From Candidatus Latescibacterota bacterium (GTDB lineage: Bacteria; Latescibacterota; UBA2968; UBA8231), in NCBI GenBank assembly GCA_965203175.1, contig OZ241867.1, forward strand, positions 5,536,001-5,600,000: DNA of 64,000 nucleotides, in the 5' to 3' direction. The translations under genes were made by a program, and so were the position numbers. Below the pieces are notes generated by a model, which ran no database searches, was not told the DNA's origin, and saw nothing but the letters and a program-made list of their open reading frames with translations. Within the stretch, counting starts at the first letter, position 1, and each line of letters begins with the position of its first letter. Shown here piece after piece: positions 25,038 through 59,719 of the stretch.

Positions 25038-25076
25038 CAGGCGGCGACGACACTGTTCATTCGCGCTTGTCCCTCA

Positions 25077-25553
25077 ATGAAAACTAAGATTAAGAAAAAC
25101 TACCTATACTACGCTGCCGGTCGGACATGGTCTGTGCCAGAGCTACGACTAGTTTCACTCCCCGATGGCACCGCTGCCATTTCTGAAGAGGAAATCCACC
25201 GGATCCACCGGGCGATCGCCAACGAAATCTGCGGAAATAACACCAGTCTATCTATGGAAGAATTGGAATTCCTCTGTGACGTAACGGACACCACCTTCTC
25301 GGATGTGGCAGACTGGCTACAGATCCACCGCAGCACGGTTACTCGATGGCGCAAATCTGGTGAAGTGCCGAAGAGCGTAATGAGCTTGGTACTCAAGAAA
25401 TGGTTTTGGTACCTTCTTTTCGGAGAATCTCTCCATGACGAAGCGATTCCGCTGAATTGCGCCGTCAACGAGACCAAATTCCTGTCTTTTGCCAAACAAG
25501 AGACCATTGATAAACACTTAGCAGACCCAGTCTCCCAAGCTAAAATTCTATAA
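25077..25553 (+). CDS. XRE-HTH protein, MqsA-like antitoxin architecture (orphan)
   Basis: LSMEELEFL...FSDVADWLQIHRSTVTRWRKSGEVP HTH; lower GC than the flank; no toxin gene adjacent. Confidence 0.55.
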   Translation: MKTKIKKNYLYYAAGRTWSVPELRLVSLPDGTAAISEEEIHRIHRAIANEICGNNTSLSMEELEFLCDVTDTTFSDVADWLQIHRSTVTRWRKSGEVPKSVMSLVLKKWFWYLLFGESLHDEAIPLNCAVNETKFLSFAKQETIDKHLADPVSQAKIL

Positions 25554-25687
25554 CATGGGTCGCGACGGAAGTATCGTTCGCTGGTGCTTAAGGAGACCCG
25601 ACCAGTGGCTTTGGGGTTCGGAAGGGTGCTGATGCCAGAGAGTGATGTACTTTGTGGAGATGGCGAGGAGGATTGGGGGATTTGCTC

Positions 25688-27232
25688 CTATATGTAATGT
25701 CTAAACGGTAAGGGCGGCAGATCGGGAACAGGTGCAGCAGTAAGAATTTCTCCTACAGCATCAGCAAATTTGAGTGTAACAGGTTGTCCGTCTGCGAACT
25801 GGCAGGTGTTGAAGTTGATCTTGGTTAGGCCCATCACATCCGTCATAACCCTGAGCAGATCCGCATCGCCTCTGTGGATTTCGATTAGAAGAGGATTGGG
25901 CACCTCCCAACCAGGATAGGTGTCGAGTCGAGGTATAAAACCCTTGGTCCAAAGGTATCCTCTCCCTCTTGTTGAAAGGTATGCAGTGCCACGCAGGACG
26001 GGCATTTTACCTGATCTATATAGCTTCAACTCACTGGTTGAGCGAATACGCACCCCGACTAGGTCGGTCTCTTTTGGGACAACGGATTTGAAACCTTCCC
26101 ACTCATCGTCGTTAAATCGCGTTTTGCCGTGAATAAAAAGCTCAGTAGGTGGCTTTCCGTGAAGGTTTAGATATGACCCCACCACTAGACTCATCAACTC
26201 GGAGGCTTTCTCTTTACTAAGGTGAAATTCGTGCGTATCCTTCGAGTACCAAGGGCCGACTGCACCTCGAAAAACAACGCCATCGCCCGAGTCCAAAAAC
26301 ATTTGGGCTCCGCAACAAGCATTGCCAGCGATTATGTCGGTACCGTCCATCTTGTAAACCAATCCTACGTAGCAGACCCCCGGGCGGACCGACGCCAGTT
26401 TCCATGGTTTGCCACTGGCCTTGAAGAATGCTGTTGTACAGAGATTCCAAGCGACTGTGGCAGGATCTTCAGGTTCACGGATGAGGCGGCCATCTTGAGT
26501 GAATCGGTGAGGTGTAAGTGTCGTGTCGCGTACAATCTGAAGGACAGCCCCTATACCTAAAAGGCGAGCTTTCATTTGGTGGTGAAAATTAAGCTCGTAG
26601 CGGTAAATTTCTGCGGCTTTCCGGTCTTCGGGAAAAAGCGAACCTTTACGGAGAATTCGACGTCCGTCCCTAGGTTCGAAAGGCTGATTTCCCTTAATGC
26701 GCTCTTCCTTCGGTACAACTGACTTAGGTCGCCCATATCGGTAAACCTCTTCCGGTATGATAACGAACCACATGGTAGGCGGTGCTTCGTCTTGGCGTAA
26801 ATGCCTGCGTATCGGCTCCTCAAAAAGCTCGACAGTCTTGTATATTGCTTCATGCCTATCAGTGATCCGAATCGAATCACGAACGTCATTTTCCAAGACA
26901 GTTAATTCGACTAGAGGATTTTCTGGCCACTGAGTGCCAAAAACTGCTTGGAATCCAGGCCAACCAGTGTGGTGGGGTTCATTCGGGGTCTTGGGTGGAA
27001 TATAGCGTCGAATACTTTCTACCCATTCACGAAAACAGCTCAAACCGTTCGGTGTCCCAATGACGCCGATACGCATTTCGGCAGGATTAGCTCTGTCATC
27101 CAAGGGTCCGAACAGAAAAAGCCCATCCTTCGGATGTTCCAATTCCTGACCGTAGCGGAAGCCTAATTGTGGCTCTTCGATGTGTTTGAGTGGAGAGTTT
27201 TCATACCGCCTCTCCGTATTTGTCGTCTTCAT
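25688..27232 (-). CDS. ago: Short prokaryotic Argonaute (MID-PIWI, catalytically inactive), SPARTA
   Basis: HIEEPQL.F.YGQ...PKDGLFLFGP N-terminus; MID FHHQMKARLL...QIVRDTT; KASGKPWKL; CYVGLVYK without the DEDX tetrad; LFIHG; TKINFN; C-terminal PPLPFRHYI. Matches short pAgos of SPARTA systems. Start uncertain. Confidence 0.95.
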   Translation of the reverse strand: MKTTNTERRYENSPLKHIEEPQLGFRYGQELEHPKDGLFLFGPLDDRANPAEMRIGVIGTPNGLSCFREWVESIRRYIPPKTPNEPHHTGWPGFQAVFGTQWPENPLVELTVLENDVRDSIRITDRHEAIYKTVELFEEPIRRHLRQDEAPPTMWFVIIPEEVYRYGRPKSVVPKEERIKGNQPFEPRDGRRILRKGSLFPEDRKAAEIYRYELNFHHQMKARLLGIGAVLQIVRDTTLTPHRFTQDGRLIREPEDPATVAWNLCTTAFFKASGKPWKLASVRPGVCYVGLVYKMDGTDIIAGNACCGAQMFLDSGDGVVFRGAVGPWYSKDTHEFHLSKEKASELMSLVVGSYLNLHGKPPTELFIHGKTRFNDDEWEGFKSVVPKETDLVGVRIRSTSELKLYRSGKMPVLRGTAYLSTRGRGYLWTKGFIPRLDTYPGWEVPNPLLIEIHRGDADLLRVMTDVMGLTKINFNTCQFADGQPVTLKFADAVGEILTAAPVPDLPPLPFRHYI

Positions 27233-28637
27233 TGTCAAGTAAGTCGTCAAAATCCCTTCCATCCAAGGCACTATCGAAATTATCCAGAGCGTCAGCCTCT
27301 GTTTCATCTTCTACATGGTCTTCTTCGGCTGTGGACACTGAGCCATTCTCAACAATAGACAAAGGAGCCTCAAAGCCCATCGGAGAAGCAGCTATTGTCG
27401 CCACGGCGTCACCGCCTAGAGATAGGGAGAATTCTTCTTTGCCGTTCGCTAGGTCAGCTACAAAAGCGCGAAGCAAGTCGCGCCAACGATCATTCCACCA
27501 ATTCTTACAGAAGCTCTTTCGTAGGCGATCAGCACTAGATTGGCTATCGAGCGGCGTCTTTCCATCTTGGGTGAAGACGACGTGGGTGCGCAAGGCAAGA
27601 TGCCGTGGGTCAGCTATGCTGATCTTGCCTGATACCGCAAAGTGCCAATGGACGCCTCTTGTTTCGCTTCGACCAACTAGCCGCCGTCGCCGTTTCTTGC
27701 CGTTCTCATCTTGAAAAGTGGCAATGTTCCCTTCGATCATATCGAGAGGGACGAACCACGCGCTGCCGTGTGCAAATTCACAAAGCAATAGACCCTGATT
27801 CCGTGCGAATTGCTCCCATGCTTGGCGTAGAAGTCTAGTTACTATGTTTCGAGCATCGCGCCACGAGACTTGTGGCCTGTTGTTCTTCTGACCATCGAGA
27901 AACTGTGTCAATGGAACACGATAAGCGTGTTCAAGTGGAATATCGGGAGTCTCCATTTGAAGCGTATCCGCATTAGCAAAGCTGACGGCCAGCCGCATAT
28001 ACGGGGCTGTGGGGCTTTGAAATTCATTAAACGCACGCTCCATGGCCTCCTGTGACGCATTGAAACGAGAAAAATAGATATGAGACGGTAGAGAACTGAT
28101 TTGGAACCAGTTAGAAAATATTGGCTCCGGTGTATCAGAGACGGAGGCGCTTTGCCGCAGCTTAAACTTTTGCCAAGAAGCCAAGGCTTCTCCGAAATCA
28201 CTAGTCGATTGCGGAATCTGGATATCCTTGAGAGTCTCCAGAAGTGTGCTGAATCCGTCCGCCCAGTTAGGAGAGAAGTCTATGGCGTTTAGGCGAATCA
28301 ACTGTTCGGGGAAGTCCGAGAACGGAAGATCATCAAGGCGGATAGGTATGACGAATTGTTGTTTGTTGAGTCGCCGACCTGTGTTTACAGCAAGAGCAAT
28401 TTCGTCAAGAACGCCATCTTTCTGATAAGAATCACGGGATAAGGCAACGATGACGGTGGCGGCTTCTTCCTTAATCGCGTCACCAATATCTCTCCAGAAT
28501 GTCTCGCCGCCGAGTAGGGTAAGGACATCTGCCCAGACTTCATAGCCAGCGGCGGTTAACCGTGTACCTAGCCAAGAGGCAAACTCGTTATCCTCGGGAT
28601 TAGCGTGGCTGATGAAGATAAGGTTACGTTCCTTCAT
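27201..28637 (-). CDS. TIR-APAZ NADase effector, SPARTA
   Basis: IFISHANPED..F..WL...L...GYEVWAD..L.GGE.FW; catalytic Glu in GVLDEI (E79); APAZ region WHFAVS...HVVFTQDG...KNWWNDRWRD; acidic C-terminal tail. Confidence 0.95.
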   Translation of the reverse strand: MKERNLIFISHANPEDNEFASWLGTRLTAAGYEVWADVLTLLGGETFWRDIGDAIKEEAATVIVALSRDSYQKDGVLDEIALAVNTGRRLNKQQFVIPIRLDDLPFSDFPEQLIRLNAIDFSPNWADGFSTLLETLKDIQIPQSTSDFGEALASWQKFKLRQSASVSDTPEPIFSNWFQISSLPSHIYFSRFNASQEAMERAFNEFQSPTAPYMRLAVSFANADTLQMETPDIPLEHAYRVPLTQFLDGQKNNRPQVSWRDARNIVTRLLRQAWEQFARNQGLLLCEFAHGSAWFVPLDMIEGNIATFQDENGKKRRRRLVGRSETRGVHWHFAVSGKISIADPRHLALRTHVVFTQDGKTPLDSQSSADRLRKSFCKNWWNDRWRDLLRAFVADLANGKEEFSLSLGGDAVATIAASPMGFEAPLSIVENGSVSTAEEDHVEDETEADALDNFDSALDGRDFDDLLDNEDDKYGEAV

Positions 28638-28650
28638 ATCGACTCAGCGG

Positions 28651-29808
28651 CTAACTCGCACCCCGGCCCAAGCGGCAATCTTCGGCGGCGAGCCACTCCG
28701 CATACGGGCGCGGCATAGGGCTAGGCAAGCCCAAGCCGTGTTCCTCGCGCCAGCGCAATAGTGGGTGCTCGCGGTCTGCTTGCGGCAAAGCCACGCGCTT
28801 CCCACGCGCCCCCGACTCGAAAATCCCCATCAATATCTCCAGCACGTGGCGACCGGCCTCGCCCGAACACTCGTGCGCGCGGCCCTCGTCGAGCGCCTTC
28901 ACGTACTCGTCGGTGAACTGATAGTCCTCCACAGCAGCCGGGCCCGCCGGGTCGTAGTGTTCGGGCACTATGGGGTCGAGCGGCTGCCACTCGGATTGGC
29001 CAGGGGCAAAGTGCGGCGTGGACAAAAACCACGGCGCACCGCTCTTCCAGTAGAGCCGCCCCTCGGTGCCGTAGATCTCGATCATATAAGCCGTTGAATC
29101 CACCTTGGGAAAGCGGTGCTGCAAGAGCGTACCCGAAATCCCACATGCAAAGGCAAGGGCCGCAGTGACGTGCTCACCGGCAATGTAGCCCATGCCGCTC
29201 GGCGACGGCACCACATCCTCGGGCGTGATCGGTCGGCCATCGGTCAGGGCCACGGCTTGCACGCTCTGCACCGGCCCAACCACGCCGAGCATGGCATTGA
29301 GCGAGTGCGTGGCGATATTCATCAGGCCATAGCCTCCGTAGTAGCCCTTACCGCTGCCCTGCACATAGCGCAACTCGCCAATCCGGCCCTCGGCAATCGC
29401 CGCTTTGACCGCTTGCAGTGCACCGCCGCTGCGCCCTTGGTGATGCACGGCCACTTGCACCCCTTTCTCCGCGGCTTTGGCCAACACTTCATCGGCCTCG
29501 GCCAAGGTAATGCAAATCGGCTTCTCAATGTCGATGTGGACTCCGTACTCCAACACTCGCATAGCCAGCGGATAGTGGAACTCAGTGCCCGTGGGAATGG
29601 CGACAATGTCCGGGGCCTCGGCCTCGATCATCCGGTCGAGGTCGTCGTAGCGAGCCGCAACCCCCAACTCGTCGCCGAGGTTCGCCAACCGCTCGGGCAC
29701 AAGATCGCACAGAGCCACAACCTCGGTGCGGGGATGCTGATGGTACGCGCGGGCCGCGGCCGTGCCTCGGCCGCGGCAGCCCAAAATGGCAATTCGGTAT
29801 TGTTGCAT
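28651..29808 (-). CDS. Gfo/Idh/MocA family oxidoreductase
   Basis: IAILGCRGRG, HIDIEKPI, LMNIATH; ATG 29808 follows AAGGAG. Confidence 0.85.
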   Translation of the reverse strand: MQQYRIAILGCRGRGTAAARAYHQHPRTEVVALCDLVPERLANLGDELGVAARYDDLDRMIEAEAPDIVAIPTGTEFHYPLAMRVLEYGVHIDIEKPICITLAEADEVLAKAAEKGVQVAVHHQGRSGGALQAVKAAIAEGRIGELRYVQGSGKGYYGGYGLMNIATHSLNAMLGVVGPVQSVQAVALTDGRPITPEDVVPSPSGMGYIAGEHVTAALAFACGISGTLLQHRFPKVDSTAYMIEIYGTEGRLYWKSGAPWFLSTPHFAPGQSEWQPLDPIVPEHYDPAGPAAVEDYQFTDEYVKALDEGRAHECSGEAGRHVLEILMGIFESGARGKRVALPQADREHPLLRWREEHGLGLPSPMPRPYAEWLAAEDCRLGRGAS

Positions 29809-29854
29809 GGTGCTATCTCCTTGCGACGCCAATGCTGGCGTCGGACTGATTGAG

Positions 29855-30529
29855 TTACTTTTGATCGATTAACTCGGCCTTTTTCCAATACGCTGCAAGG
29901 TGCTTGCGCAGCCACGTCAGCGGCGCAAAGCGCAGCGCATTAAAGCCCCCCCAAGACCAGCGCAACGGCCACTCTTTCCGGCCAGTGAGCCATTGAAAAA
30001 GCCGTTTGCGCTCCGCGCCCGCCAACTCCACCTCGGCGCTGAGCCGCGCCAATTCGCGGTCGTACGTCCCCTCCATGATCATGCGGGCGTGCCGCGCGAC
30101 CTTTTCCGGCTCCAGCACGGCCACCCGTGGACACACCATGCCAGCCTCGCGCCGCACAAAGGCGCGAATTTGCGCCGACGGAAAATCGCCTTGATGCGCA
30201 ATAGCTTGGCGGGCGATCGAAACCGGATTCATCGCCCCGTACGTGCGGCAGATCAGCGGGCGCACCGGATAAATAGTACAGCTATGGTCCGCGCCGAGAA
30301 AGGGACAGCGGCGCGGCCGCTCCTCAGTAAAGCTCAGCAGCTCTTGGCGACGCTGTGGGGAAAAGTGCTTCTCCACATAGGCGACGATGTGGACGTATTC
30401 GGCTCGGTAGAGCGGGAACATGGTGGCGTAATAGTTGTCGAACTCCTCTTCCGTGAGCGCACAGCAGTCGCCCGTACCAGCGCACCGCGTCGCCGGAACT
30501 TGATCGTAGAGTACCTCTAGATCGCGCAT
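29855..30529 (-). CDS. YkgJ-family cysteine-cluster (Zn/Fe-chelating) protein
   Basis: CAGTGDCC and CPFL....CTIYPVRPLICR. Confidence 0.8.
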   Translation of the reverse strand: MRDLEVLYDQVPATRCAGTGDCCALTEEEFDNYYATMFPLYRAEYVHIVAYVEKHFSPQRRQELLSFTEERPRRCPFLGADHSCTIYPVRPLICRTYGAMNPVSIARQAIAHQGDFPSAQIRAFVRREAGMVCPRVAVLEPEKVARHARMIMEGTYDRELARLSAEVELAGAERKRLFQWLTGRKEWPLRWSWGGFNALRFAPLTWLRKHLAAYWKKAELIDQK

Positions 30530-30547
30530 AACTCCTCCTGTTGTAAT

Positions 30548-32945: not shown

Positions 32946-32955
32946 TCGCGCGTGC

Positions 32956-33579: not shown

Positions 33580-33605
33580 GGTCCACCTTCCTGAGTTTGA
33601 ACGTT

Positions 33606-33660: not shown

Positions 33661-33696
33661 GCGCAAACAGGGTGCAGTAACACGGCTTTACACCCC

Positions 33697-43237: not shown

Positions 43238-43747
43238 TTGGTCAAACTTCGCCTTAAGAGAATAGGCAAACGCAAACAGCCTTATTACCGGATCGTCGCC
43301 GCCCACATTAGCGTCGCCCGCAACGGCCGATCCCTCGCAGAGGTGGGCTTCTACGATCCCATGCACGCCAGCGTCAAAATCGACGAAGAGCGGGCCATAG
43401 AGTGGCTCAACAAAGGTGCGCAGATGAGCGAAACCGTCGCCGACCTCTTCCACAGCCAAGGAGTATTGGCCCGCTGGAAGGGAGCAGAGGGCCGGGTGCG
43501 CGACGACGCTCTCACCGGCGACAAACCCAAGCGCCGGCGCAAGAAAGCCGCGGCTGCGCCAGTCCAACCGGCTGAACCGGTCGAGCAAGAAGCCGCTGAA
43601 TCAACCGAACCGGCTGAACAAGAAGAAGCTGCGCCAGCCGAACAGGAAGCCGCTGAATCGACTGAACCAGCCGAGCAAGAAGAAGCTGAACCGGTCGAGC
43701 AAGAAGCCGCTGAATCGGCTGAACCAGCCGAGCAAGAGAAAAAATAG
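43238..43747 (+). CDS. rpsP: 30S ribosomal protein S16 with acidic repeat C-terminal extension
   Basis: VKLRLKRIGKRKQPYYRIV...GFYDP...WL.KGAQ.SETV; position in the ffh-rpsP-rimM-trmD-rplS operon. Confidence 0.95.
   Translation: MVKLRLKRIGKRKQPYYRIVAAHISVARNGRSLAEVGFYDPMHASVKIDEERAIEWLNKGAQMSETVADLFHSQGVLARWKGAEGRVRDDALTGDKPKRRRKKAAAAPVQPAEPVEQEAAESTEPAEQEEAAPAEQEAAESTEPAEQEEAEPVEQEAAESAEPAEQEKK
43571..43741 (+). repeat. Three tandem 57-bp (19-aa) coding repeats in rpsP
   Basis: Units start at 43571, 43628 and 43685, encoding approximately AEPVEQEAAESTEPAEQEE. Confidence 0.9.
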
Positions 43748-45389: not shown

Positions 45390-45623
45390 ATGGCCCAACG
45401 CGGAGACTTGCCTTTTACGCGCAAAAACTGGTCTTTGGCCATAGCCGGCCTAGCCGCGATCGTACTCGGCTATGTGTTTTTGCGCATCCCGCCGGCCGAG
45501 GGTTTCCTCTCCCTCACCCTAGCACCGGTACTCTTAGTGGTCGGCTACTGCGTGCTAATTCCCATGGCAATCTTGGTCCGGGACCAGTCAGCAGACCAGG
45601 AAGACGAGGCTGAACAGACATGA
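45390..45623 (+). CDS. Small membrane protein (DUF3098-like)
   Basis: LPFTRKN...I.LGY...SLTLAPVLLVVGY; two TM segments; RBS GGAGG. Confidence 0.7.
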   Translation: MAQRGDLPFTRKNWSLAIAGLAAIVLGYVFLRIPPAEGFLSLTLAPVLLVVGYCVLIPMAILVRDQSADQEDEAEQT

Positions 45624-46468
45624 CCAGCGCCCAACCCATCATCGACGACGGCGTCCACACCGACTACGCCCCGGATCTCTATCGCCACGACACCGAGGCT
45701 CAGCAGGTCGCCCGCTTCGCCGACATTGGCCCCGAGCAGCTAGCCTTCTTTCACCAGCAGGGCTACCTCGTAATAGCAGAGGCGTTTTCTCCCGCCCAAG
45801 TCGCCGACGCTGCCGACGCAGTGTACGACCTAATTGACGGCAAGCAGCCCGAATTTCGCGGCGTCCAACTGGAAACCTCCGCGCAAGGCCAAAAGCTGAC
45901 GGGCGCGGCGCGGCGTAAGGCCGTGCGCAAGCTTATGAAGTTCGTCGATTGGGACGAGCGCTTCCAACCCCTAGCCACCGACCCGGATCTCTTGGACATC
46001 CTCGCCCGCCTGATGGACGACACGCCCGTTCTATTCCAGGAGATGGCCCTACTCAAGCCGCCTAGGGGCCGGGAAAAGCCCTGGCATCAAGACTGCGCGT
46101 ACTTCAACTATCCTCTGGGCACTACCATTATCGGCGTCTGGATCGCCTTAGACCACGCCGACGCGAATAACGGCTGCCTGCACATCCTGCCCGGCACGCA
46201 TCGCGAGGGCCCAGTCAATCACTTCAAACGCCGCGATTGGCAGATCTGCGACACCGATGTCCAAGCCGAGCGCGACGTCGTCGTGCCCCTCGCCCCTGGC
46301 GGTTGCCTGCTCTGGCACGGCATGACCCACCACGGCAGCCCGACCAACCCCTCGCAAAAAATGCGCCGCGCCCTGCAACTGCACTACCGACCCGCCAACG
46401 CCGGCCAGATCGACACCGACGAGCGCATGCAGCACTTCGGCGGCGAAGTGCGCGGTGCCGAGTGCTGA
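45620..46468 (+). CDS. PhyH family dioxygenase
   Basis: KPWHQD, WIALD....NGCL..LPGTH, HG.T.HGS. Confidence 0.9.
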   Translation: MTSAQPIIDDGVHTDYAPDLYRHDTEAQQVARFADIGPEQLAFFHQQGYLVIAEAFSPAQVADAADAVYDLIDGKQPEFRGVQLETSAQGQKLTGAARRKAVRKLMKFVDWDERFQPLATDPDLLDILARLMDDTPVLFQEMALLKPPRGREKPWHQDCAYFNYPLGTTIIGVWIALDHADANNGCLHILPGTHREGPVNHFKRRDWQICDTDVQAERDVVVPLAPGGCLLWHGMTHHGSPTNPSQKMRRALQLHYRPANAGQIDTDERMQHFGGEVRGAEC

Positions 46469-46522: not shown

Positions 46523-47767
46523 ATGCAATTCATCCAACGCCTTCGCATGGGCGGCTTGCTGTCGTTTCCTCCAGATATGGACTTCTTTGAATTGCAACCA
46601 TTGAACGTCCTTATCGGTCCGAACGCCTCGGGAAAAACGAACTTCATCGAAGTATTGGAACTCCTGCGTGCCACACCGACGGACTTCGCTGCCGCAATCC
46701 GAGACGGGGGTGGGGCACAGGAGTGGACGTGGAAAGGCGATTATACCAAGCATATGATTGAAGAAGTAATGAGGGGCAGAGATCCGGAAGATGTATTGAA
46801 CTTGTCTCCCAAGGCCTCGACCATAGAAGTCGAAATCAGTCGAGGTCAGAGAATCGTCCAACCATTAAAATATCGTCTGTCGTTTACCGCTATCAGCTCC
46901 CGAGTCAATATCATAGCCGAGTCCATCGAGAAGGTGAATACCCGGCAGGGGGACAAGCCGTACTTCTACTACACATTCCAACAAGGGCTCCCGGCGATCA
47001 ACATTCGAGTACGGAGACCAGGGGGACGGACCGAGGAATTACCGTTGCAATCTGACGAACTCTCCCTGGATCAATCCGTCCTTGCGCAGCGCAAGGATCG
47101 GGATCTCTATCCGGCACTCTATCAACTCGGGTGGCAGTTCCTGTTAATACAGACGTTCCGCGAGTGGACGTTTGGTCGTTACAGTGCGCTGCGACAACCG
47201 CAACGCGTCGATCTTCCGGAGAAACGGTTACTCCCCGACTCCAGCAATCTTGCGCTGGTACTCAATCAGATCGAGCATAAGTCTGGACCGACACTCAATG
47301 AACATCTGAGGCGCTTCTTTCCCCGATTTGAGCGCATATCTACTGTAATCTCAGGTGGCACCGTGCAGTTCTACCTGCACGAACCCGGCTTCCGTGCGCC
47401 AATTCCCCCAACCCGGCTATCTGATGGCACCATCCGATTTATCGCGCTGCTGGCGACTCTGCTGGCCCCGGAGCCGCCGTCGCTGGTTTGCATAGAAGAG
47501 CCAGAACTCGGATTGCATCCCGACGCAGTGGCGCTACTGGCCGACCTGCTCGTTGAAGCCTCCCAACGGATGCAGCTCGTGGTCACGACGCATTCCGACG
47601 CCCTTGTGTCGGCGCTGACCAATCAGCCGGCCGCCATCGTCACCTGCGAACGACCAGGAGCCAGCACCGTGTTGCGCCGCCTTGATCCCGAAAAGCTCGC
47701 TAGTTGGCTAGACGACTATCGACTCGGAGACCTGTGGCGGATGGGCGAGCTTGGAGCCAACCCTTGA
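46523..47767 (+). CDS. Predicted ABC-type AAA_21 ATPase (COG4637-like)
   Basis: Walker A GPNASGKT; signature LSDGT; Walker B IEEPELGLHP; VTTHS; C-terminal LGDLW..GELG. Confidence 0.88.
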   Translation: MQFIQRLRMGGLLSFPPDMDFFELQPLNVLIGPNASGKTNFIEVLELLRATPTDFAAAIRDGGGAQEWTWKGDYTKHMIEEVMRGRDPEDVLNLSPKASTIEVEISRGQRIVQPLKYRLSFTAISSRVNIIAESIEKVNTRQGDKPYFYYTFQQGLPAINIRVRRPGGRTEELPLQSDELSLDQSVLAQRKDRDLYPALYQLGWQFLLIQTFREWTFGRYSALRQPQRVDLPEKRLLPDSSNLALVLNQIEHKSGPTLNEHLRRFFPRFERISTVISGGTVQFYLHEPGFRAPIPPTRLSDGTIRFIALLATLLAPEPPSLVCIEEPELGLHPDAVALLADLLVEASQRMQLVVTTHSDALVSALTNQPAAIVTCERPGASTVLRRLDPEKLASWLDDYRLGDLWRMGELGANP

Positions 47768-48378
47768 GCAGTATCGCCATCTACATGGAAGGTGGAGGGG
47801 ACGGCAAAGAAAATCGAGCTGCTCTTCGCCAAGGGATGGACACGTTTCTTCAGCCGCTTAAGGAAGCTGCCAGAAATAAGGCGTTACCTTGGAAGTTGGT
47901 CTGTTGTGGGCCACGCAACGAGGCGTTCAAACACTTTATAGATGCCGTCAACAGCAGTGCCGATGTGGTGAATGTCTTGCTGGTGGATGCAGAAGGGCCG
48001 GTGAACCAGTCGGCCCGAGACCACCTGCAAGATCGGGAGGGATGGGATCTGAGATTTATCGAAGAACACACCGTTCACCTCATGGTGCAAACGATGGAAG
48101 CCTGGATTGTCGCTGACTCAGAGACCCTGAAAAGCTACTACGGGCAAGGCTTCAGGGCGAAGCAACTGCCAAGGTCGAAGAACCTTGAAAGTGTGCCCAA
48201 GACTGACGTTGAAAGCTCCCTAAGTGAGGCGACGAAGGACACGCAGAAGAAGAGCTACCACAAAATCAGGCACGCAGGCGATTTGCTGAAACGGATTGAT
48301 GCAGGGAAGGTGAAGGCGCGGTGCGCTCACTGCCGACGGTTGTTTGAAGCACTTGGGGAGATAGTCGATTCGGTCTGA
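47764..48378 (+). CDS. DUF4276 family (TOPRIM-like) protein
   Basis: IYMEGGG, LLVDAE, HLMVQTMEAWIVAD, YHKIRH; TTGA overlap with the ATPase stop. Confidence 0.8.
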   Translation: MSSIAIYMEGGGDGKENRAALRQGMDTFLQPLKEAARNKALPWKLVCCGPRNEAFKHFIDAVNSSADVVNVLLVDAEGPVNQSARDHLQDREGWDLRFIEEHTVHLMVQTMEAWIVADSETLKSYYGQGFRAKQLPRSKNLESVPKTDVESSLSEATKDTQKKSYHKIRHAGDLLKRIDAGKVKARCAHCRRLFEALGEIVDSV

Positions 48379-48468: not shown

Positions 48469-48702
48469 CTACCTGTGAATGAGACAGTCTTTTAGATATG
48501 ATGCCCACTTGAGCTTTTTCTTTGTCTGTACGCAATCCTGTAGATACAGATCAATCAAGCTCTGGTATGGAATACCCGTCTCATCCGCCAAATCCTTAAA
48601 ATACGCAATCACATCCGTCCCCAAACGAAGTGTAACCTGCTTCTTAAGATGCTTTTCATAGGGATTCCGGACGGACTTCGAGAAATCGTATTCTTTCCTC
48701 AT
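48469..48702 (-). CDS. brnA: BrnA-family antitoxin
   Basis: MRKEYDFSKSVRNPY...KKQVTLRL..DVIAYFK......GIPYQSLI.LYL.DC. Confidence 0.88.
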   Translation of the reverse strand: MRKEYDFSKSVRNPYEKHLKKQVTLRLGTDVIAYFKDLADETGIPYQSLIDLYLQDCVQTKKKLKWASYLKDCLIHR

Positions 48703-48776
48703 CACATGAACCTTTCGTGTTGTCGCTGTTCGTTCCTGTTGGCCTTTCGAGCTAAAATAATCTTGATCACTGCATC
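48702..48776 (-). pseudogene. brnT: C-terminal remnant of BrnT toxin
   Basis: Reads DAVIKIILARKANRNEQRQHERFM-stop, matching the BrnT C-terminal 'VIRIISARKA..E..Y' motif. Its TGA overlaps the brnA ATG (TGATG). The 5' part is replaced by the end of the pfkB gene. Confidence 0.75.
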
Positions 48777-49645
48777 TAAATTTTACCCCCCTCCAAGCGC
48801 AACGTCGCCGCGTCGATAAAACCACCCTCCACTTGGCGAGCAGCCAACGCAGCCGCACGCTGAGCAGCCGTAGCAATCCCCACCCCTCGGTGCAGCCGAT
48901 GCGCCAAATACGCGGCGAAAAACACGTCTCCAGCCCCCGTTGGATCGGCGACCGTCTCCACCGGAGCCGACGTAAATTTCGTCCGCTGCCCTTCCCGACT
49001 GGCGACCCAGCCGCCGTGCGAGCCTTCGGTGACGACCCACTCTGCTACCGAGCAATCGCGCATCAACTGGTCCAGCGTCAGACCCCAATCGGCGAGTACG
49101 AGTTCTAATTCATCGTTGGAAGTTTTGACGTAGTCCGCGCATTGCAGAGCGGCATACAGACTTTTAGCAATCCCCTGGTACACCTGCGTCCCCTCAATCT
49201 GCCGCGCATAGCCTTGGATGTCCAAGCTCACCACGCCGTCCATCGCCGTCAGCACATCCTCGGCCAGATCACGCGGATGCAGCGGCCCCAAATGCACGTG
49301 CTCCACGCCGGCGAGTACCGGCCCGAGTTGGGCTGCGGCAATCGGCGCGGCGCAAGCGAGCAACTCCTGACGCCGTGCGTCGCCATCGACGTAGTTGACA
49401 AAACAGGTCGTCGCCGCGCTCTCGCCCATATAGACTGCAATACCCCGTTGCTGCAACACCGCCAGCATCGCCCGGTCGGCCGCGGCGACGTTGGTCAACA
49501 CCCGTGTCTCCACGCCCAACTCGGCAAAGGTCAGTCCAGCGTACGCGACTACTCCCCCGCGCTTGTACGCGCTCGTGCCGCCTTGCACCACGCGGTCAAT
49601 CGTCGCCGAACCAATGACTGCCACCGCACCCATATCAGACTTCAT
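48776..49645 (-). CDS. PfkB-family carbohydrate/nucleoside kinase
   Basis: IGSATID, GG..AY, VTEGSHG, DPTGAGDVF. Confidence 0.88.
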   Translation of the reverse strand: MKSDMGAVAVIGSATIDRVVQGGTSAYKRGGVVAYAGLTFAELGVETRVLTNVAAADRAMLAVLQQRGIAVYMGESAATTCFVNYVDGDARRQELLACAAPIAAAQLGPVLAGVEHVHLGPLHPRDLAEDVLTAMDGVVSLDIQGYARQIEGTQVYQGIAKSLYAALQCADYVKTSNDELELVLADWGLTLDQLMRDCSVAEWVVTEGSHGGWVASREGQRTKFTSAPVETVADPTGAGDVFFAAYLAHRLHRGVGIATAAQRAAALAARQVEGGFIDAATLRLEGGKI

Positions 49646-53045: not shown

Positions 53046-55570
53046 TGGTCTGGCTCGGCAAAATGGCCTGGCGCGACAGCCGCAGCCACCGCCGCAAACT
53101 GCTGCTTTTTACTTCTTCGATCTCCATCGGCATCGGTGCGCTCGTCGGCTTGAGCAGCCTCAGTTCCACCCTGCAAGAGGCGATGGACCAACAAGCTGCC
53201 GAGCTTTTAGGTGCCGATATGGCGCTGACGAGCCGCCAGCCCTTCACGTCCGCCACCGAGACGCTCATCGACTCGCTCGGCGGCGTTCAGGCGCGCCAGG
53301 TTGCCTTCAATTCCATGATTTACCTGCCTAAGACCCAGAGCACCCGCCTCGCCCAGATCCGCGCCCTTGATGGCCCTTTCCCTTTTTACGGCGAGCTAAA
53401 AACAGCACCGGCTGAGGCCGCCCAGAGCTTCCGCACCCAGCCTCATGCTCTCGTTGACGAGGCGCTCATGTTGCAGTTTGGCGCGGCGGTCGGCGACTCG
53501 ATCAAGATCGGCGACACGGTCTTTCTCATCGGTGGCCGACTCCTGCGCATACCCGGCGAGAACGCCCTCTTCAGCGACATCCAGCCGCGCGTCTATATCC
53601 CGATGTCCTACCTCGACGACACTCACCTGATCCAACGAGGCAGCCGCGTCACCTACACTGCTTTCTTCCGCTTTGCCGAGCGGGATGTCCAAGCAATAGC
53701 CAAGTCCATCCGCCCCCACACCCGAGGCGACCGCCTCCGGCTCGAAACCATCGAGAGACGCAAGGCGCGCCTCGGCCGTACCCTCAACAACCTCTACCGC
53801 TTCTTAAACCTCGGCAGCTTTATCGCCCTGCTGCTGGGCGGCGTGGGCGTGGCCAGCGCCATCCACACCTATACGCGGCAAAAACTGTCCACCGTCGCGG
53901 TGCTGCGCAGTCTCGGTGCCACGGCCCGTCAGACCGTCTTGATCTATCTAATCCAAGCCGGGGGCATGGGTTTAGTCGGCTCGCTCGTCGGCGCCCTGCT
54001 CGGCGTCGGGGTTCTCTACCTGCTCCCCAACATCCTCGCCGACGTGCTACCCCTCCAAGTCGAGCCGAGCTTTGATTTCCTCGCCGTCTTGGAGGGTCTC
54101 GGTCTCGGCCTCGGCCTTTCGCTGCTATTTGCCGCGCGGCCGTTGCTGGCCATTCGCAAGACCTCGCCGCTTTTGACTCTGCGTGCCTCATTTGAAGACG
54201 ACCAACCGACCGACAGCGGGTGGTTGCGCTGGGCTTTGTATGTGGGGATCGTCCTTATAACCGCGCTCTTCGCCTACCGACTCACCGACCGCTGGCCGCT
54301 GGCCATTGGCTTTGTCGGCGGGGTTGGAGTCGCCTTTGCGCTCCTAACGCTTACGGCCCGCGCAATCATCTACGGCACTCGGCGGTTCTTTCCCGCCTCT
54401 TGGAGCTATATCTGGCGTCAGGGCCTAGCCAACCTCTACCGCCCTAACAACCAGACTACGCTGCTGATGTTGGGCCTCGGGCTGGGGACTTTCCTGCTCA
54501 GCACTCTGTTCCTAACCCAGACCAACCTGCTGTCCTACATTAGAAGCGTCGGCTCCGACCAAAACCCCAACGTCGTGCTCTTCGACATCCAAACCGATCA
54601 GCGCCAAGGACTAAACGACCTCGTCGCGGGGATGGATCTGCCGTTGTTGCAACAGATGCCCATCGTCACCATGCACATCCACAGCATCAAAGGCCAACCC
54701 GCCCGCGCCATACTCCGCGATACCACCGCCAACCGACGCCGACGCGGCAATTGGGCCCTGCGGCACGAGTACCGCGCGACCTACCGCGATTCTCTCACCA
54801 ACACCGAAGAGATCGTCGCCGGCACGTGGCGCAGCCAACCTGCGGGCGACACCCTCTACGTCTCCTTGGAAACCGGCGTCGCCTCCTCCTTGGGCGTTGG
54901 CGTTGGCGACTCGCTGACCTTTGACGTCCAAGGAGTCCCTGTCGAAGTCGTCGTCGGCAGTCTGCGCCAAGTCAACTGGCAGCGCATCATGCCCAACTTT
55001 TTGGCGGTCTTCCCGCCCGGCATCCTCGAACCTGCGCCGCAATCCCACGTCCTCGTCACCCGCGCCGCCACGACCGAGCAAATGGCCGCCCTGCAGCGGG
55101 CCACCGTGCATCGATTCCCCAATGTCTCGGTCATCGATCTCGGCAGTATCCTCAGCACCGTCGATACTATTCTCGACAAGGTGTCGCTAGTAGTCCGTTT
55201 TATGGCCTTTTTCAGCGTCTCCGTTGGCCTAGTCGTGCTCGTCGGCGTGATTGCCAGCAGCCGCTACCAACGCATTGAGGAAAGCGTCTTGCTCAAGACC
55301 TTGGGGGCCAGTCGCCGCCAAGTGGTAGCAATCATGGCGCTCGAGTATCTGTTTTTGGGAGCTTTTGCTGCGGCGACGGGAGTGATCTTGTCGCTAGGGG
55401 GCGTCTGGGCCTTGAACCGCTATCTCTTCGAGATCGGCTTCGCGCCCGACTACCTGCCCGTGATCCTCGCCTTTGCGGTGGTCAGTCTGCTAACGGTCAC
55501 CGTCGGCATGATTTCCAGCCGCGGCGTCCACACTAGCCCGCCGCTCGAAGTCCTGCGCTCGCTCGGTTAG
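53042..55570 (+). CDS. ybbP: ABC transporter permease, FtsX/MacB-like (YbbP-like)
   Basis: MAWRDSR, LLGAD, FPFYG, two FtsX halves, FDIQ.DQ, LKTLGAS. Confidence 0.85.
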   Translation: MMVWLGKMAWRDSRSHRRKLLLFTSSISIGIGALVGLSSLSSTLQEAMDQQAAELLGADMALTSRQPFTSATETLIDSLGGVQARQVAFNSMIYLPKTQSTRLAQIRALDGPFPFYGELKTAPAEAAQSFRTQPHALVDEALMLQFGAAVGDSIKIGDTVFLIGGRLLRIPGENALFSDIQPRVYIPMSYLDDTHLIQRGSRVTYTAFFRFAERDVQAIAKSIRPHTRGDRLRLETIERRKARLGRTLNNLYRFLNLGSFIALLLGGVGVASAIHTYTRQKLSTVAVLRSLGATARQTVLIYLIQAGGMGLVGSLVGALLGVGVLYLLPNILADVLPLQVEPSFDFLAVLEGLGLGLGLSLLFAARPLLAIRKTSPLLTLRASFEDDQPTDSGWLRWALYVGIVLITALFAYRLTDRWPLAIGFVGGVGVAFALLTLTARAIIYGTRRFFPASWSYIWRQGLANLYRPNNQTTLLMLGLGLGTFLLSTLFLTQTNLLSYIRSVGSDQNPNVVLFDIQTDQRQGLNDLVAGMDLPLLQQMPIVTMHIHSIKGQPARAILRDTTANRRRRGNWALRHEYRATYRDSLTNTEEIVAGTWRSQPAGDTLYVSLETGVASSLGVGVGDSLTFDVQGVPVEVVVGSLRQVNWQRIMPNFLAVFPPGILEPAPQSHVLVTRAATTEQMAALQRATVHRFPNVSVIDLGSILSTVDTILDKVSLVVRFMAFFSVSVGLVVLVGVIASSRYQRIEESVLLKTLGASRRQVVAIMALEYLFLGAFAAATGVILSLGGVWALNRYLFEIGFAPDYLPVILAFAVVSLLTVTVGMISSRGVHTSPPLEVLRSLG

Positions 55571-56223
55571 CGACGCAACTCCTCCAGCACTGGCCCCAGC
55601 GTCACCCACACGGTTTCGGCGACGATCCGGTGGCCTTCGGCGTTCGGATGGTTGCCGTCGGGCAGGTTTAGCGCGGGTTGGTCGCCCACGCCTTCTAACA
55701 AAAAGGGGATCAAGGCTGCATCGTTTTTCTCTGCCAACGCCGGGAAGATCGCGGCAAACGCCTTTGTGTATTCTGCGCCCATATTGGGCGGCATTAGCAT
55801 CCCAGCGATGACCAAGGCTACTTCGGGGTTTTTTGCTTTTACCCGCTCGACGATTTGTTGCAGGTTGGCGTGGGTGTCTTTGGGGTCTATGCCGCGCAGG
55901 CCGTCGTTGGCCCCCAATTCGAGGACGAAGACATCGATGGGACGGCGCAAGAGCCAGTCAATGCGACGCAGCCCACCGGCTGAGGTCTCGCCGCCAAGCC
56001 CGGCATTAAAAACCTCGAAGTTCCAGCCGAGCGAATCGATCCGCGCCTGCACTAACGCCGGGAAGGCCTGTTCGCGGTCGAGGCCATAGCCAGCGGTCAA
56101 GCTATCGCCAAAAAAGAGAATGACGCGGCTGGAGTCCGCCTCTTCGGCATAGGCGCTACTGCTGAGTAACGCCAAGGCTAATGCGATGTATTTCACCTTG
56201 TGTGCCTTCTTAGTTTTGCCCAT
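55567..56223 (-). CDS. tesA: Arylesterase / SGNH-GDSL lipase (TesA-like)
   Basis: GDSLTAGYG, NAG.GGETSAGG, ELGANDGLRG, DGNHPN. Confidence 0.9.
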   Translation of the reverse strand: MGKTKKAHKVKYIALALALLSSSAYAEEADSSRVILFFGDSLTAGYGLDREQAFPALVQARIDSLGWNFEVFNAGLGGETSAGGLRRIDWLLRRPIDVFVLELGANDGLRGIDPKDTHANLQQIVERVKAKNPEVALVIAGMLMPPNMGAEYTKAFAAIFPALAEKNDAALIPFLLEGVGDQPALNLPDGNHPNAEGHRIVAETVWVTLGPVLEELRR

Positions 56224-57001
56224 GTGCTTCTTGCTTGTTAAAGCGAAAAATTCGCTGTGCCCGCGCCGATAGCTGGTCCATAATCTCCGCTGGCAGCGGA
56301 TCGGCCGCTTTGTATTGGTAGCCCAAGGTCGGGAAGTAGCGGTGGTACACCAGCGACATCATGGTGCGGCGGCAGTTCGTGCGGTTGGGCGTGGCCCGGT
56401 GCCAGACGCGCATGTCGCGCACTACGGTAGAACCAGCCGGCATGTTGGTGCGCATCGACGGCATAGTCAATGCACGCTCTTCCAAGCCGCCCGCTCGCCC
56501 CACATCCGCCGGGTCAATGGTAGCCTCGTGATCCGTAATCAGATGCGTGCCCGGCCACACCTCCGTGCTGCCGTTTTCCTCTGTAAAGTTCACCAACGGG
56601 ATGTTCACGACCATCATATGCGGCGGCATGGCAATGGGCAAATCGGGGAAGAGATGCAGTTGGTCGCGGTGGACAACTTGCGTCTCCAGCCAGTTGGGCT
56701 CCGTGGAGTTGCAGTGATAGGGCAGCTTGGCCCAAAAATCCTCGCCGAGCATGACGTCCAAAATCTGCACGGCCCAAGGATTTTCAATTGCCAGCGGATC
56801 AATAAAGGGAGGACGCAACAAATCGCCCAGCGTCCGGCCTTCCAAATGACCGTCCCAAGCCTCGCGCATTGCATCGCACCACACCCGGTCCATGGTCTCC
56901 TCCAAAATGACGAATCCCGCTTCCCGCACTTGGCGCACTGCCTCGGCCAAAGTGTCATCGGCGAGGCGGTGCTGTTCAATTTCTTGTGTCGATAGTTTCA
57001 T
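56210..57001 (-). CDS. PhyH family dioxygenase
   Basis: Q.VHRD, NIPLV.FT.ENGSTEVWPGTH, RD.RVWHR. Confidence 0.85.
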   Translation of the reverse strand: MKLSTQEIEQHRLADDTLAEAVRQVREAGFVILEETMDRVWCDAMREAWDGHLEGRTLGDLLRPPFIDPLAIENPWAVQILDVMLGEDFWAKLPYHCNSTEPNWLETQVVHRDQLHLFPDLPIAMPPHMMVVNIPLVNFTEENGSTEVWPGTHLITDHEATIDPADVGRAGGLEERALTMPSMRTNMPAGSTVVRDMRVWHRATPNRTNCRRTMMSLVYHRYFPTLGYQYKAADPLPAEIMDQLSARAQRIFRFNKQEAHGQN

Positions 57002-57103
57002 AAAAATCTCGTCGATCCTACTGCAAAGCTATTGTCATGGTCAAGGTTTGATCCCACTCCTATATTAAGCGCCGATTCCCTAAACTGCACCCCCGGAGTC
57101 TTC

Positions 57104-58033
57104 ATGCAGACCACCATTTTAGGCCGCACTAACCTAACCGTCTCGCGCATGGGCTTAGGCGCTGGCGGCCACAGCCGAATCGGGCGCAACATTGGCTTAA
57201 CCGACGCCCAATCCGCCGACCTCGTTCGCCGTGCCTTAGACCACGGCGTCAACTTCATCGACACGGCCGAAGGCTATGGCACTGAAGCCATCATTGGCCA
57301 AGCTCTACAGGGCCGCGACCGCACCTCCGTCGTCCTCTCCACCAAAAAATCCACCCGCAACGAACAGGTCACACCCGACACTTTGCAAATCAGCCTCGAC
57401 CAGAGCCTAAAGCACCTAGGCACCGACTACATCGACCTCTACAATCTCCACGGCGTCGTGCCCCAAGACTACGCCTATCTCGTCAACGACGTTTATCCCG
57501 CGCTGCAAAAGGCGCAGCAACAGGGCAAAATACGCTTCGTCGGTCTTAGCGAGATGTTCAACGAGGACTTCGAACACACCATGCTCCAGCAGGCTCTAGC
57601 CGACGACCTCTGGGATGTCCTAATGGTCGGCTTCAATCTGCTCAACCAGACCGCCCGGGCCAACGTCTTCGCGCAGGCCATCGCGCAAAACGTCGGCATC
57701 CAAATCATGTTCGCCATCCGAAAGGCACTTAGCCACCCCGACAACCTGCGCGCATTCACCGACGCCCTCGTCGAAAAGGGGCAAATCGACCTCGCCGACC
57801 TCGACTCCTTTCCCGACTTCCTGCTGGCCGAAGCCCCATCCCTACCTGATGCCGCCTACCGCTTCTGCCGCGACGAGCCGGGCGTCCACGTCGTCCTCTC
57901 CGGCACGGGCAACGCCGACCACCTCGACGCCAACCTCGCGTCTTTCGCCCGCCCGCCACTGACGCAAAAGACACGCGACCGACTCATCCACATCTTCCGC
58001 CGCGTCAATTCTACTACGGGGCAAGCGGTGTAG
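57104..58033 (+). CDS. Aldo/keto reductase
   Basis: LGRT.L.VS..GLG, NFIDTAEGYG, LSTK, LGTDYIDLYNLH, GKIRFVGLS. Confidence 0.9.
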   Translation: MQTTILGRTNLTVSRMGLGAGGHSRIGRNIGLTDAQSADLVRRALDHGVNFIDTAEGYGTEAIIGQALQGRDRTSVVLSTKKSTRNEQVTPDTLQISLDQSLKHLGTDYIDLYNLHGVVPQDYAYLVNDVYPALQKAQQQGKIRFVGLSEMFNEDFEHTMLQQALADDLWDVLMVGFNLLNQTARANVFAQAIAQNVGIQIMFAIRKALSHPDNLRAFTDALVEKGQIDLADLDSFPDFLLAEAPSLPDAAYRFCRDEPGVHVVLSGTGNADHLDANLASFARPPLTQKTRDRLIHIFRRVNSTTGQAV

Positions 58034-58046
58034 GGAGGATATAGTA

Positions 58047-58304
58047 ATGACTCCGTTTGAAAAATGTCCAGTGTGCAGTGGCGATATTGTTAAAAAGGAA
58101 GTCGAGAAAGTCCTACGTGTTGGCAATAACACGGAGATCGTGAAAGTTCAAGCTTTGGTTTGTCTTCGTTGTGGCGAACGCTTTTATACGCCCGAGGTTG
58201 TAAGACTTTTTGAAGAGATCAGATCAAAACTGAACGATGCGGAAATGGCTAATGCCAAAAATACAACGCTTCAGACTAAGAAAGACAATACCGGCTCACT
58301 GTAA
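58047..58304 (+). CDS. YgiT-type zinc-finger protein (putative orphan antitoxin)
   Basis: CPVCSG...VCLRCGERFY; RBS GGAGGA; low GC. Confidence 0.8.
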   Translation: MTPFEKCPVCSGDIVKKEVEKVLRVGNNTEIVKVQALVCLRCGERFYTPEVVRLFEEIRSKLNDAEMANAKNTTLQTKKDNTGSL

Positions 58305-58341
58305 TCGGATCCATATATAGCGTCTTCATGGTTGGGTTCCA

Positions 58342-58674
58342 TTAGCTCGTTGGGTGTGCTAACTCGTCCAGTGCCACATTGAGCACGCCCGCGAGTCTAC
58401 GGAATAATTTGAGTGTACCAGGCTTCTGTCCGTTCTCAATCTGCGACAGATACCCTTTCGAGACGCCCACTTGCTTGGCCAGCGCGTCCAGCGTGAATTC
58501 GCGGTGCTTCCGCCACACGCGCAAGGGCGATTCGCCAACGAGAATGGCCTTTACGACTTCACCCGGAATCGTCTCGCCTGCCGCGTCTTCGGCCCATGCC
58601 TGTTCGATAGCCGTAGAATCGGCCGCGTCCTCAAGTGCGGCGACCATCTGGTCGATCTTCGCCATCAGCAACAC
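58342..58674 (-). CDS. XRE-HTH antitoxin-like regulator (orphan, start uncertain)
   Basis: ED..D..A......E.IP.EVV..IL.GESPLRVWRK.R..T...LA..VGVS..YLSQIENG. Confidence 0.75.
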   Translation of the reverse strand: MLLMAKIDQMVAALEDAADSTAIEQAWAEDAAGETIPGEVVKAILVGESPLRVWRKHREFTLDALAKQVGVSKGYLSQIENGQKPGTLKLFRRLAGVLNVALDELAHPTS

Positions 58675-58778
58675 CTTTTGCTCGTCGTTGAGCGAGTAGT
58701 CTAGATTGAACTAGTAGACACTCAATAAGTAAGCATACTCAATGACACGGCCTTAGTCCGGCGTTACCGCGTCACTCA

Positions 58779-59651
58779 CTAGCCTTTCATCAGCGAACAG
58801 ATAAGATCTTTAGATCGTCCTGCGACAATCCGGCTTTGCTGAAAAGAGGCTCTGTTTATTCTCTTGATGATATAATCGTTGCTATCGTTTAAAGGAAGTA
58901 ACAACTCCTTTTCAGGGGTCGAAGTAGGCGCCACGATGACATCGTAAGCAATAGGAAGCCAACTTCCATACACTTGGTCTCGCTTATGCGCGGGTTGAAC
59001 GATGACGACACCATGGCTCCCAATGACAAAGCTTCTTCTCGGCTGGCGAATGACAGCGATAAGCAAACCTGTTTTACGAGAGAAGCACTTCACATCAGAT
59101 TTAAGGTGGGGGTGCTCACCAGAAGCAAAGCCTGCCTTGGTGTTTTGCTTCATAGCGGGTTTGGCTCCGCTAAGGATAGGATTCGAATCGAGAAATTCCC
59201 TGTTAGGAGGATCTATTCCTTGTTGGAGCAATAGGCGCTCAATCGCCATATGAAAAACATCGTCATACTGCTCATCAAGCCTTAGCATTTCCTCTGCAAA
59301 TTCTGGCGTCCGCCGACACGAAGCATGATAGAATCGGGTCCAAGATAGTCTCTCCTCCACGGAGAGCTTGGGATGTTCATTGTTTCGAACACACTGTATG
59401 ATTCTTCGGATAACGGGCGCTGCGCGGCTTTCAATCCGGCTTAGTTCCTCTTCAGCTTCATAACTGTAGTTCCCTTGATCGAGATTTAATGTTCGATAGA
59501 GATTTCTCTGCACAAAAATATTTGTCGGAGTACCTGGATACAGTTTTCCTTTCTCTTTGTCGTATACCCATAAACGATTCTTGTCATCAAGAAAGTTATT
59601 GAGCAGTATCTTCGGAATGTAATGATGTCGTTTTGGATCATTAGAACTCAT
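58779..59651 (-). CDS. DUF4238 domain protein
   Basis: KRHHYIPK.LL.NF...LWVYDK...NLY...E..LS.IE; low GC. Confidence 0.8.
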   Translation of the reverse strand: MSSNDPKRHHYIPKILLNNFLDDKNRLWVYDKEKGKLYPGTPTNIFVQRNLYRTLNLDQGNYSYEAEEELSRIESRAAPVIRRIIQCVRNNEHPKLSVEERLSWTRFYHASCRRTPEFAEEMLRLDEQYDDVFHMAIERLLLQQGIDPPNREFLDSNPILSGAKPAMKQNTKAGFASGEHPHLKSDVKCFSRKTGLLIAVIRQPRRSFVIGSHGVVIVQPAHKRDQVYGSWLPIAYDVIVAPTSTPEKELLLPLNDSNDYIIKRINRASFQQSRIVAGRSKDLICSLMKG

Positions 59652-59719
59652 TTACGTGTGATCCCTTTTTCAAAAGTGTCCTTTTGGTTCCAATAATATC
59701 GCTCGACTCCCCTCGCCCC

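Follow-up and report, generated by a model that had tools for sequence, protein, structure and literature searches.

A 64,000-nucleotide stretch of a Candidatus Latescibacterota bacterium genome (contig OZ241867.1, positions 5,536,001 to 5,600,000; hereafter the window) contains three convergent gene junctions, J1, J2 and J3, at which toxin-antitoxin (TA) and defense genes, here termed cargo, lie between the ends of host genes. J2 and J3 are hypervariable accessory hotspots, and J1 is probably a small integrase-free accessory hotspot too. The reading favored here, with a probability of about 0.6, is that of an integrase-free additive island, which would grow by homology-anchored recombination and be eroded by toxin-first deletion. 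An earlier note, made from the window sequence alone, had described these junctions and proposed that cassettes are captured behind operons for read-through expression.

Turnover of cargo between conserved genes

Relatives were collected by one scan of GTDB genomes with alignment of the amidohydrolase gene between J2 and J3, which yielded 42 loci. Nineteen came from close relatives (89-95% identity, mostly Candidatus Latescibacterota; core nucleotide identity to the window 84-93%), four at 75-79% identity were used for synteny only, and 19 at 67% identity or less were left out. The relatives were seen as 20-kb loci that cover J2 and J3, with J1 outside. From their cargo, 106 open reading frames (ORFs), nearly all chosen from 403 clustered candidates, were compared with Pfam and 28 with PADLOC.

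The genes flanking J2 and J3 were conserved across sister species and the cargo between them differed, as the turnover at fixed gene ends envisaged in the earlier note would have it. J2 was seen with both flanks in 15 relatives. It was empty (9-10 nt) in L008 and L013, and was filled in the other 13 with differing cargo of 0.1-4 kb, comprising HEC-01, a second ATPase pair, a restriction-modification pair, an AAA-nuclease, a transposase and remnants; it was also empty in the distant L020. The synteny of phyH was kept in 15 close relatives, and HEC-01A was the cargo nearest phyH in seven. J3 was filled in all 17 relatives showing the aldo/keto reductase (AKR) gene; its permease flank was visible in three, because many arrays extend beyond the end of the locus. 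No cross match between J2 and J3 was found among 34 regions, and each site has its own TA/defense pool. Insertions in relatives also occur at divergent sites (AbiEii and leucine-rich repeat (LRR) genes). Large genes with LRR and fibronectin-III repeats lie between core genes at L005:7610-10405, L013:7585-9846 and L016:11180-15265.

Strand was fixed in 52 of 52 occurrences of nine recurrent J3 modules, while seven of the 20 module pairs seen in at least two loci were found in both orders; this order count leaves out one fragment of L007, a nucleotidyltransferase paralogue at 71%. Gene-end duplications were also found. In the window, two exact 21-bp copies of an ankyrin gene end bracket fic (6849-6869 and 8170-8190), as the earlier note had reported, and none of 100 shuffles gave two matches; a promoter scan upstream of fic called no site. 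Such duplications recur in relatives, as a 12-bp phyH-end repeat including the stop around HEC-01 (L011), a 15-bp AKR-end repeat (L034), a 14-bp permease-end repeat (L012), a diverged 47-bp higA-end repeat around vapBC (L008) and an ISP tail repeat of ~300 bp at 77% (L003). They are unequal in length (12 to ~300 bp) and two have diverged copies, a pattern that fits neither a transposase nor one common att core. In L005 the AKR end matches sequence upstream of the gene over 15 bp, but this match was rejected because that upstream sequence is promoter-like and varies in all relatives. No repeat common to the modules was found, and both junction points and repeat lengths vary.

Palindromic inserts of 33-92 nt, presumably REP-like (repetitive extragenic palindromic), occur at overlapping gene ends, some with a gene-end duplication. 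Their sites are the DJC28/amidohydrolase or permease/tesA ends (L003, L008, L009, L010, L012, L014, L023) and the rsmB end (L011, L013). In L006 and L008, tesA and AKR contain the same 17-18-bp repeats in frame, resembling coding-embedded palindromic elements.

Erosion of TA modules

The intact brnTA of L007 and L014 lies 45 nt past pfkB and is preceded by a sigma70-like site whose end is 12 nt ahead of the brnTA start. One deletion common to the window, L003, L004, L010 and L015 removes this leader and most of brnT, and L023 carries a different brnT deletion. At J3, a DUF4258 gene precedes ygiT in L014; in the window and L005 it has been removed by a deletion that runs from the stop codon of AKR as far as the ribosome-binding site. 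The ygiT product is 373 aa in L005 and L014, and the window copy lacks the C-terminal three quarters. Judged from these alignments, the 0-nt gap before brnT and the 13-nt gap before ygiT are deletion scars. The same comparison corrects two J3 identities in the earlier note: its ygiT gene reads as a truncated piece and its helix-turn-helix (HTH) gene as a parE::higA deletion fusion. In plasmid homologues of this fusion gene, a toxin gene lies upstream. No plasmid match was found for the brnA region or for the J1 HTH gene.

A tally of seven TA families (n=50) gave 20 intact modules, 20 with antitoxin only, none with toxin only, nine fragments and one at a contig edge, the window parE::higA fusion being counted as antitoxin-only by coverage. 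The roles of toxin and antitoxin in HEPN-MNT and DUF4258-YgiT are those we take them to have. The orphan antitoxins that the earlier note expected turnover to leave behind are present in this tally; orphan antitoxins are already known as such (PMC7192599).

Deletions strip toxins and leaders and halt at the host stop codon. The tight tail-on layout would mostly be a residue of deletion, rather than designed promoter borrowing, since relatives at two junctions show swapped, reordered and worn cargo. The short promoter-free gaps that had been read as a capture layout are, for brnT and ygiT, deletions, and relatives with intact modules keep a promoter-like leader or the partner gene.

Composition of the window

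Profile scans and ORF positions across the window upheld the gene names and layout first proposed for the three junctions (Table 1). J1 carries an HTH gene and SPARTA; HEC-01, brnA and a stub of brnT occupy J2; and J3 carries ygiT, an HTH gene and DUF4238. HEC-01A/B, BrnA, the YgiT finger, HTH_3, DUF4238 and Fic matched their families by profile, and the window's own cargo genes belong to known families. The gaps from host stop to cargo, earlier given as 0-68 nt, measured 39 nt (NRAMP to HTH) and 13 nt (oxidoreductase to TIR-APAZ) at J1, 54 nt (phyH to ATPase; 36 nt if an upstream TTG start is used) and 0 nt (pfkB to brnT stub) at J2, and 13 nt (AKR to ygiT) and 68 nt (permease to DUF4238) at J3. 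The cargo is lower in guanine-plus-cytosine content, as had been stated (0.50, 0.53 and 0.47 versus 0.59 for the window), but the host permease flanking J3 is likewise low, at 0.53.

Table 1 Features of the window at J1, J2 and J3 and at two tandem junctions
Feature	Position	Strand	Evidence and remarks
Fic gene	7008-8168, within 6849..8190	+	Between two exact 21-bp copies of ankyrin gene end
phd/AbrB-doc pair, intact	22813..23438	+	TIGR02609, TIGR01550; tandem junction, 143 nt past upstream stop
NRAMP-like transporter, J1 left host	23481..25037	+	Pfam Nramp, NCBIfam NF037982
HTH protein, full-length 158 aa	25077..25553	+	64 homologues, mostly 157-164 aa
Type ISP restriction-modification gene, 3' tail remnant	25596..25686	+	Abuts pAgo stop
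Short pAgo of SPARTA	25688..27232	-	PADLOC pAgo_I; PDB SPARTA pAgo E 1e-131
TIR-APAZ of SPARTA	27201..28637	-	PADLOC Aga_TIR; 13 nt past oxidoreductase stop
Gfo/Idh/MocA oxidoreductase, J1 right host	28651..29832	-	Pfam
phyH, J2 left host	45620..46468	+	Pfam; ends ffh-rpsP-rimM-trmD-rplS run
HEC-01A ABC ATPase	46523..47767	+	PADLOC E 2e-144
HEC-01B (DUF4276)	47764..48378	+	Profile scans
BrnA antitoxin, orphaned	48469..48702	-	Pfam
brnT remnant, last ~24 codons	48702..48775	-	Aligned to intact brnTA of L007, L014, L034
pfkB kinase, J2 right host	48776..49645	-	Pfam; stop codon now at deletion junction
Aldo/keto reductase (AKR), J3 left host	57104..58033	+	Pfam; present in 17 relatives
YgiT-finger gene, cut to 85 aa	58047..58304	+	Upstream DUF4258 partner deleted
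parE::higA fusion remnant	58342..58698	-	98-nt internal deletion versus intact parE-higA of L011, L012
DUF4238 gene	58779..59651	-	Pfam; only in window among 18 J3 loci
Sugar ABC permease, J3 right host	59720..60577	-	Pfam; flank seen in L006, L017, L018

The lack of mobility genes was also borne out: the scan of 69 window ORFs matched neither an integrase nor a transposase family. Neither a tRNA or tmRNA nor an Rfam match was found in the window; a tRNA/tmRNA target with a repeated end is accordingly absent from it, and the repeats belong to the ends of protein genes. No terminal inverted repeat was seen among the 25 longest of 599 window repeat pairs and no cassette-end repeat common to the cargo among the largest window repeat families, and the signature of an insertion sequence (IS) or transposon, terminal inverted repeats with an identical target duplication of fixed length, was not observed. 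Cargo was present at three of the seven convergent window junctions and at two of the 43 remaining junctions (post hoc Fisher test, p 0.016). The four other convergent junctions are empty, and the two tandem junctions hold fic and phd-doc.

At J1, PADLOC gave E-values of 4e-148 for TIR-APAZ and 2e-211 for the short prokaryotic Argonaute (pAgo), with TIR-APAZ upstream of short pAgo as in the SPARTA gene order. The pAgo start that overlaps the TIR-APAZ stop is one base out of frame (window 27204-27232); the in-frame ATG at 27232 gives 514 aa, the closest homologues having 505 aa and some being annotated at 515-518 aa. Relative to its closest homologues the gene lacks one base near its start; it may be a pseudogene, use an alternative start or carry an assembly error. 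A TIR-APAZ copy at J3 of L010 shares 85.5% nucleotide identity with the J1 gene, and the J1 ISP remnant resembles ISP tails at J3 of L003, L011 and L015 (Type_ISP_C was found in L015); that both lie at J1 in the window but at J3 in relatives would reflect either relocation or inversion between arrays. At L010:2-1411, HigA contributes its N-terminal HTH to an in-frame fusion with TIR-APAZ, and an intact higB lies upstream. The J1 HTH protein, a tentative MqsA-like antitoxin, gave no MqsA match in a structure search, and its Atlas clusters were unnamed or HTH_3; that identity found no support.

Five J3 cargo ORFs in relatives (L003:1895-2689, L004:10-1845, L005:560-1681, L011:641-1381 and L008:1385-2002; 264, 611, 373, 246 and 205 aa) had no Pfam or PADLOC match. 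These genes sit among known defense genes and are candidates for anti-phage systems. Beyond AKR within the J3 array of L034 (L034:1-275) is a CRISPR array with a 28-bp repeat, of which five copies were seen, and which we take to be type I-E-like.

Several other features were seen. Ribosomal protein S16 carries a tandem acidic Ala/Glu/Pro repeat extension (window 43571-43737). The state of the phyH2 gene (window 56210-57001) differs among relatives, some having it, some a remnant and some neither; in those that lack it, the phyH2 start seems to be joined to tesA. A cluster of P450-GPP34, kinase, sulfotransferase and major facilitator superfamily (MFS) genes lies between pfkB and DJC28 at L004:11096-17078 and is partly found in L018. 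In L011, the ABC ATPase and permease genes show 80-86% identity amid neighbors of 90-94%, which suggests a replaced core segment. The divergent permease allele lowers the core identity of L011, and cargo-versus-core contrasts in this locus were not used as evidence of transfer.

Orientation and expression of the cargo

The strict co-orientation of cargo with host genes described in the earlier note holds at six of six junction ends in the window and fails once relatives are compared. The six ends correspond to p ~0.15 at the window background and p 0.016 at 50%; they are unremarkable because the background, hand-counted as 37 of 51, is already 73%. Across the loci compared, the cargo gene at a host 3' end was co-oriented in 37 of 48 cases (AKR 12/18, phyH 11/13, pfkB 12/13, permease 2/4), and with four hand-scored ends added the count was 38 of 52, equal to the window background; these counts have alleles in common and are non-independent. 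J2 is polarized as originally described. J3 is unpolarized, with six of 18 AKR ends facing a convergent gene and internal divergent units within its arrays. In L009 and L034, phyH2 faces a convergent ImmA-PIN cassette.

A nucleotidyltransferase module has a sigma70-like leader, a putative promoter; promoter scans gave counts near those of shuffles, with no excess in relatives, and single sites are no more than suggestive. HEC-01 starts 54-62 nt past phyH, and the window gap between them contains no promoter-like site and no terminator. A longer leader was not seen for HEC-01, SPARTA or DUF4238. Read-through expression of these three and of the orphan antitoxins at present is plausible. The notion of promoterless cassettes built for read-through found no support in the comparison with relatives, given the sigma70-like leaders of intact modules, the internal divergent units of J3 and the gap deletions.

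Discussion

Under the additive-island model, homologous recombination in flanking genes would move alleles between sister lineages, an exchange already proposed for hotspots free of mobile genetic elements (MGEs) in the pertinent section of PMC5635113. Sometimes only one end would be homologous, the other being a microhomology join. A one-sided join would stack donor cargo beside recipient cargo and would reorder modules without inversion. Where the donor is anchored in a host gene and the microhomology join falls just before the recipient gene end, the product would be a duplicate end with the donor cargo first; at a gapless junction, only joins of that type would spare both host genes. Convergent gaps would be favored because no promoter is disrupted there. 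Toxin-first deletion would wear modules down to the host stop, the toxin going first because loss of the antitoxin would be lethal, and a deletion that places an antitoxin behind the host stop would leave it expressible via read-through. Homology-facilitated illegitimate recombination is on record, as set out in part of PMC6382021, and we infer by analogy that one-sided events of this kind apply to these junctions.

Weakly in favor of the model, a home-made pairwise homoplasy index (PHI) test, which is crude and sensitive to rate clustering, gave p<0.05 for three of three flanking genes and two of five others. Several observations count against it. Gene-end repeats are rare, with two of 50 host-end searches beyond the 8-11 nt control range, and none was found at J1-J3 of the window, where they were looked for. 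Cargo nucleotide identity (83-99%) is near that of the core (83-95%), so that much can be explained by cargo staying in place for long and being lost vertically. Host gene ends mostly do not follow the type of the adjacent cassette (one of 10 windows significant; p 0.006, ~0.06 corrected). The position of TIR-APAZ, which is at J1 in the window but at J3 in L010, requires an extra relocation or inversion, and one DDE (IS-type) transposase was present among the scanned ORFs of relatives, at J2 of L007.

It was also considered whether each site once held a single long array, since subjected to tandem duplication and random loss with vertical inheritance and little exchange. The single order kept by 13 of the 20 module pairs, the site-specific cargo pools, the correlation between cargo and core identities found in several modules (r 0.8-0.99, with few loci for each) and the existence of duplicates such as the 71% fragment in L007 are in keeping with such an array, which is nevertheless unlikely in view of nucleotidyltransferase alleles 95-99% alike at different positions, diverged gene-end copies, many lineage-unique genes and an empty J2 in L008, a member of the close clade, as well as in L013 and L020, which lie outside that clade. 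Reordering without inversion resembles integrons, and relatives show insertions of short palindromes at gene ends, accompanied by duplications, so that an enzyme acting in trans, either a remote integrase or a REP-associated tyrosine transposase, might excise and reinsert modules. This is quite unlikely, as attC-like core pairs, scored by core motifs, numbered 14 in 33 arrays and 10-20 in shuffles, and the modules share no repeat and differ in junction points and repeat lengths.

Operon tailing, in which promoterless cassettes would be captured at operon 3' ends so as to exploit read-through, agrees with the co-orientation of eight of eight cargo units in the window, with the polarity of J2 in most relatives and with the position of HEC-01 close behind phyH. 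We consider it very unlikely given the weaker co-orientation at AKR and permease ends, the convergent ImmA-PIN cassette, the putative leaders owned by intact modules and the origin of the shortest gaps in deletions. Returning to the additive island, a bolder formulation is doubtful, if less so than these alternatives: integron-like shuffling of TA and defense modules without integrase or attC, with gene ends as anchors, fixed polarity and antitoxins parked under host operons. In sedentary chromosomal integrons, cassette order is shuffled and TA cassettes have their own promoters. The junctions differ in that the window has no IntI and the arrays have no attC-like excess; no IntI tyrosine recombinase was found among the 69 window ORFs or the 106 selected cargo ORFs of relatives.

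Overall, the junctions form a hotspot system whose general kind is known, with MGE-free hotspots and additive islands as its nearest counterparts. As portrayed in the hotspot passages of Oliveira et al. 2017 (PMC5635113), MGE-free hotspots likewise have fixed core flanks, fast turnover and no recognizable mobile element, and new genes enter at operon edges; at J2 and J3, the core genes on either side stay constant around variable cargo, and no MGE protein was found in the window. Those passages do not describe the fixed-strand order permutation, toxin-first erosion and gene-end duplications seen here. In Alteromonas additive flexible genomic islands, as outlined in the corresponding part of PMC4898812, cassette number and order also vary at a fixed site, some with a target-end repeat; their targets are mostly tRNA or tmRNA genes, whereas here they are protein-gene ends with repeats of 12-~300 bp, some diverged. 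The core defense hotspots of Pseudomonas aeruginosa, in the relevant text of PMC10250203, similarly hold defense genes between constant core genes, 29-47% without a mobile gene, but cDHS1 has a median of 26 kb and tRNA/tmRNA landing sites, in contrast to 0-4+ kb and TA dominance here. P2/P4 defense hotspots, by the account in a portion of PMC13586616, resemble the present junctions in swapping rapidly and in forming chimeric fusions, of which HigA::TIR-APAZ in L010 is the example here, and differ in showing no pseudogenization and being almost never empty, whereas remnants are many here and J2 can be empty. SPARTA and HEC-01 are ordinary members by profile, although the pAgo here may be frameshifted; HEC-01 gave no defense in the assays covered in part of 10.1101/2024.01.29.577857. 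The variant lies in its anatomy, which is small, TA-dominated, anchored at protein-gene ends, shuffled at fixed polarity and heavily eroded.

A literature search, with subscription journals largely outside its coverage, found no account of this pattern in Latescibacterota. A sponge-symbiont lifestyle is presumed for the clade and may apply to the window organism. Sponge Latescibacterota have been reported to carry TA, restriction-modification and CRISPR systems, according to a section of PMC12993501.

The junctions offer a base-level view of how integrase-free hotspots may be born, through gene-end duplications at gapless junctions, reordered and worn down; the mechanism of birth and reordering is left open by the hotspot papers in the parts compared here. 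The 20-to-0 asymmetry and the deletion ends at host stops make the toxin-first decay model directly testable, and the unannotated array genes are a possible source of new anti-phage systems.

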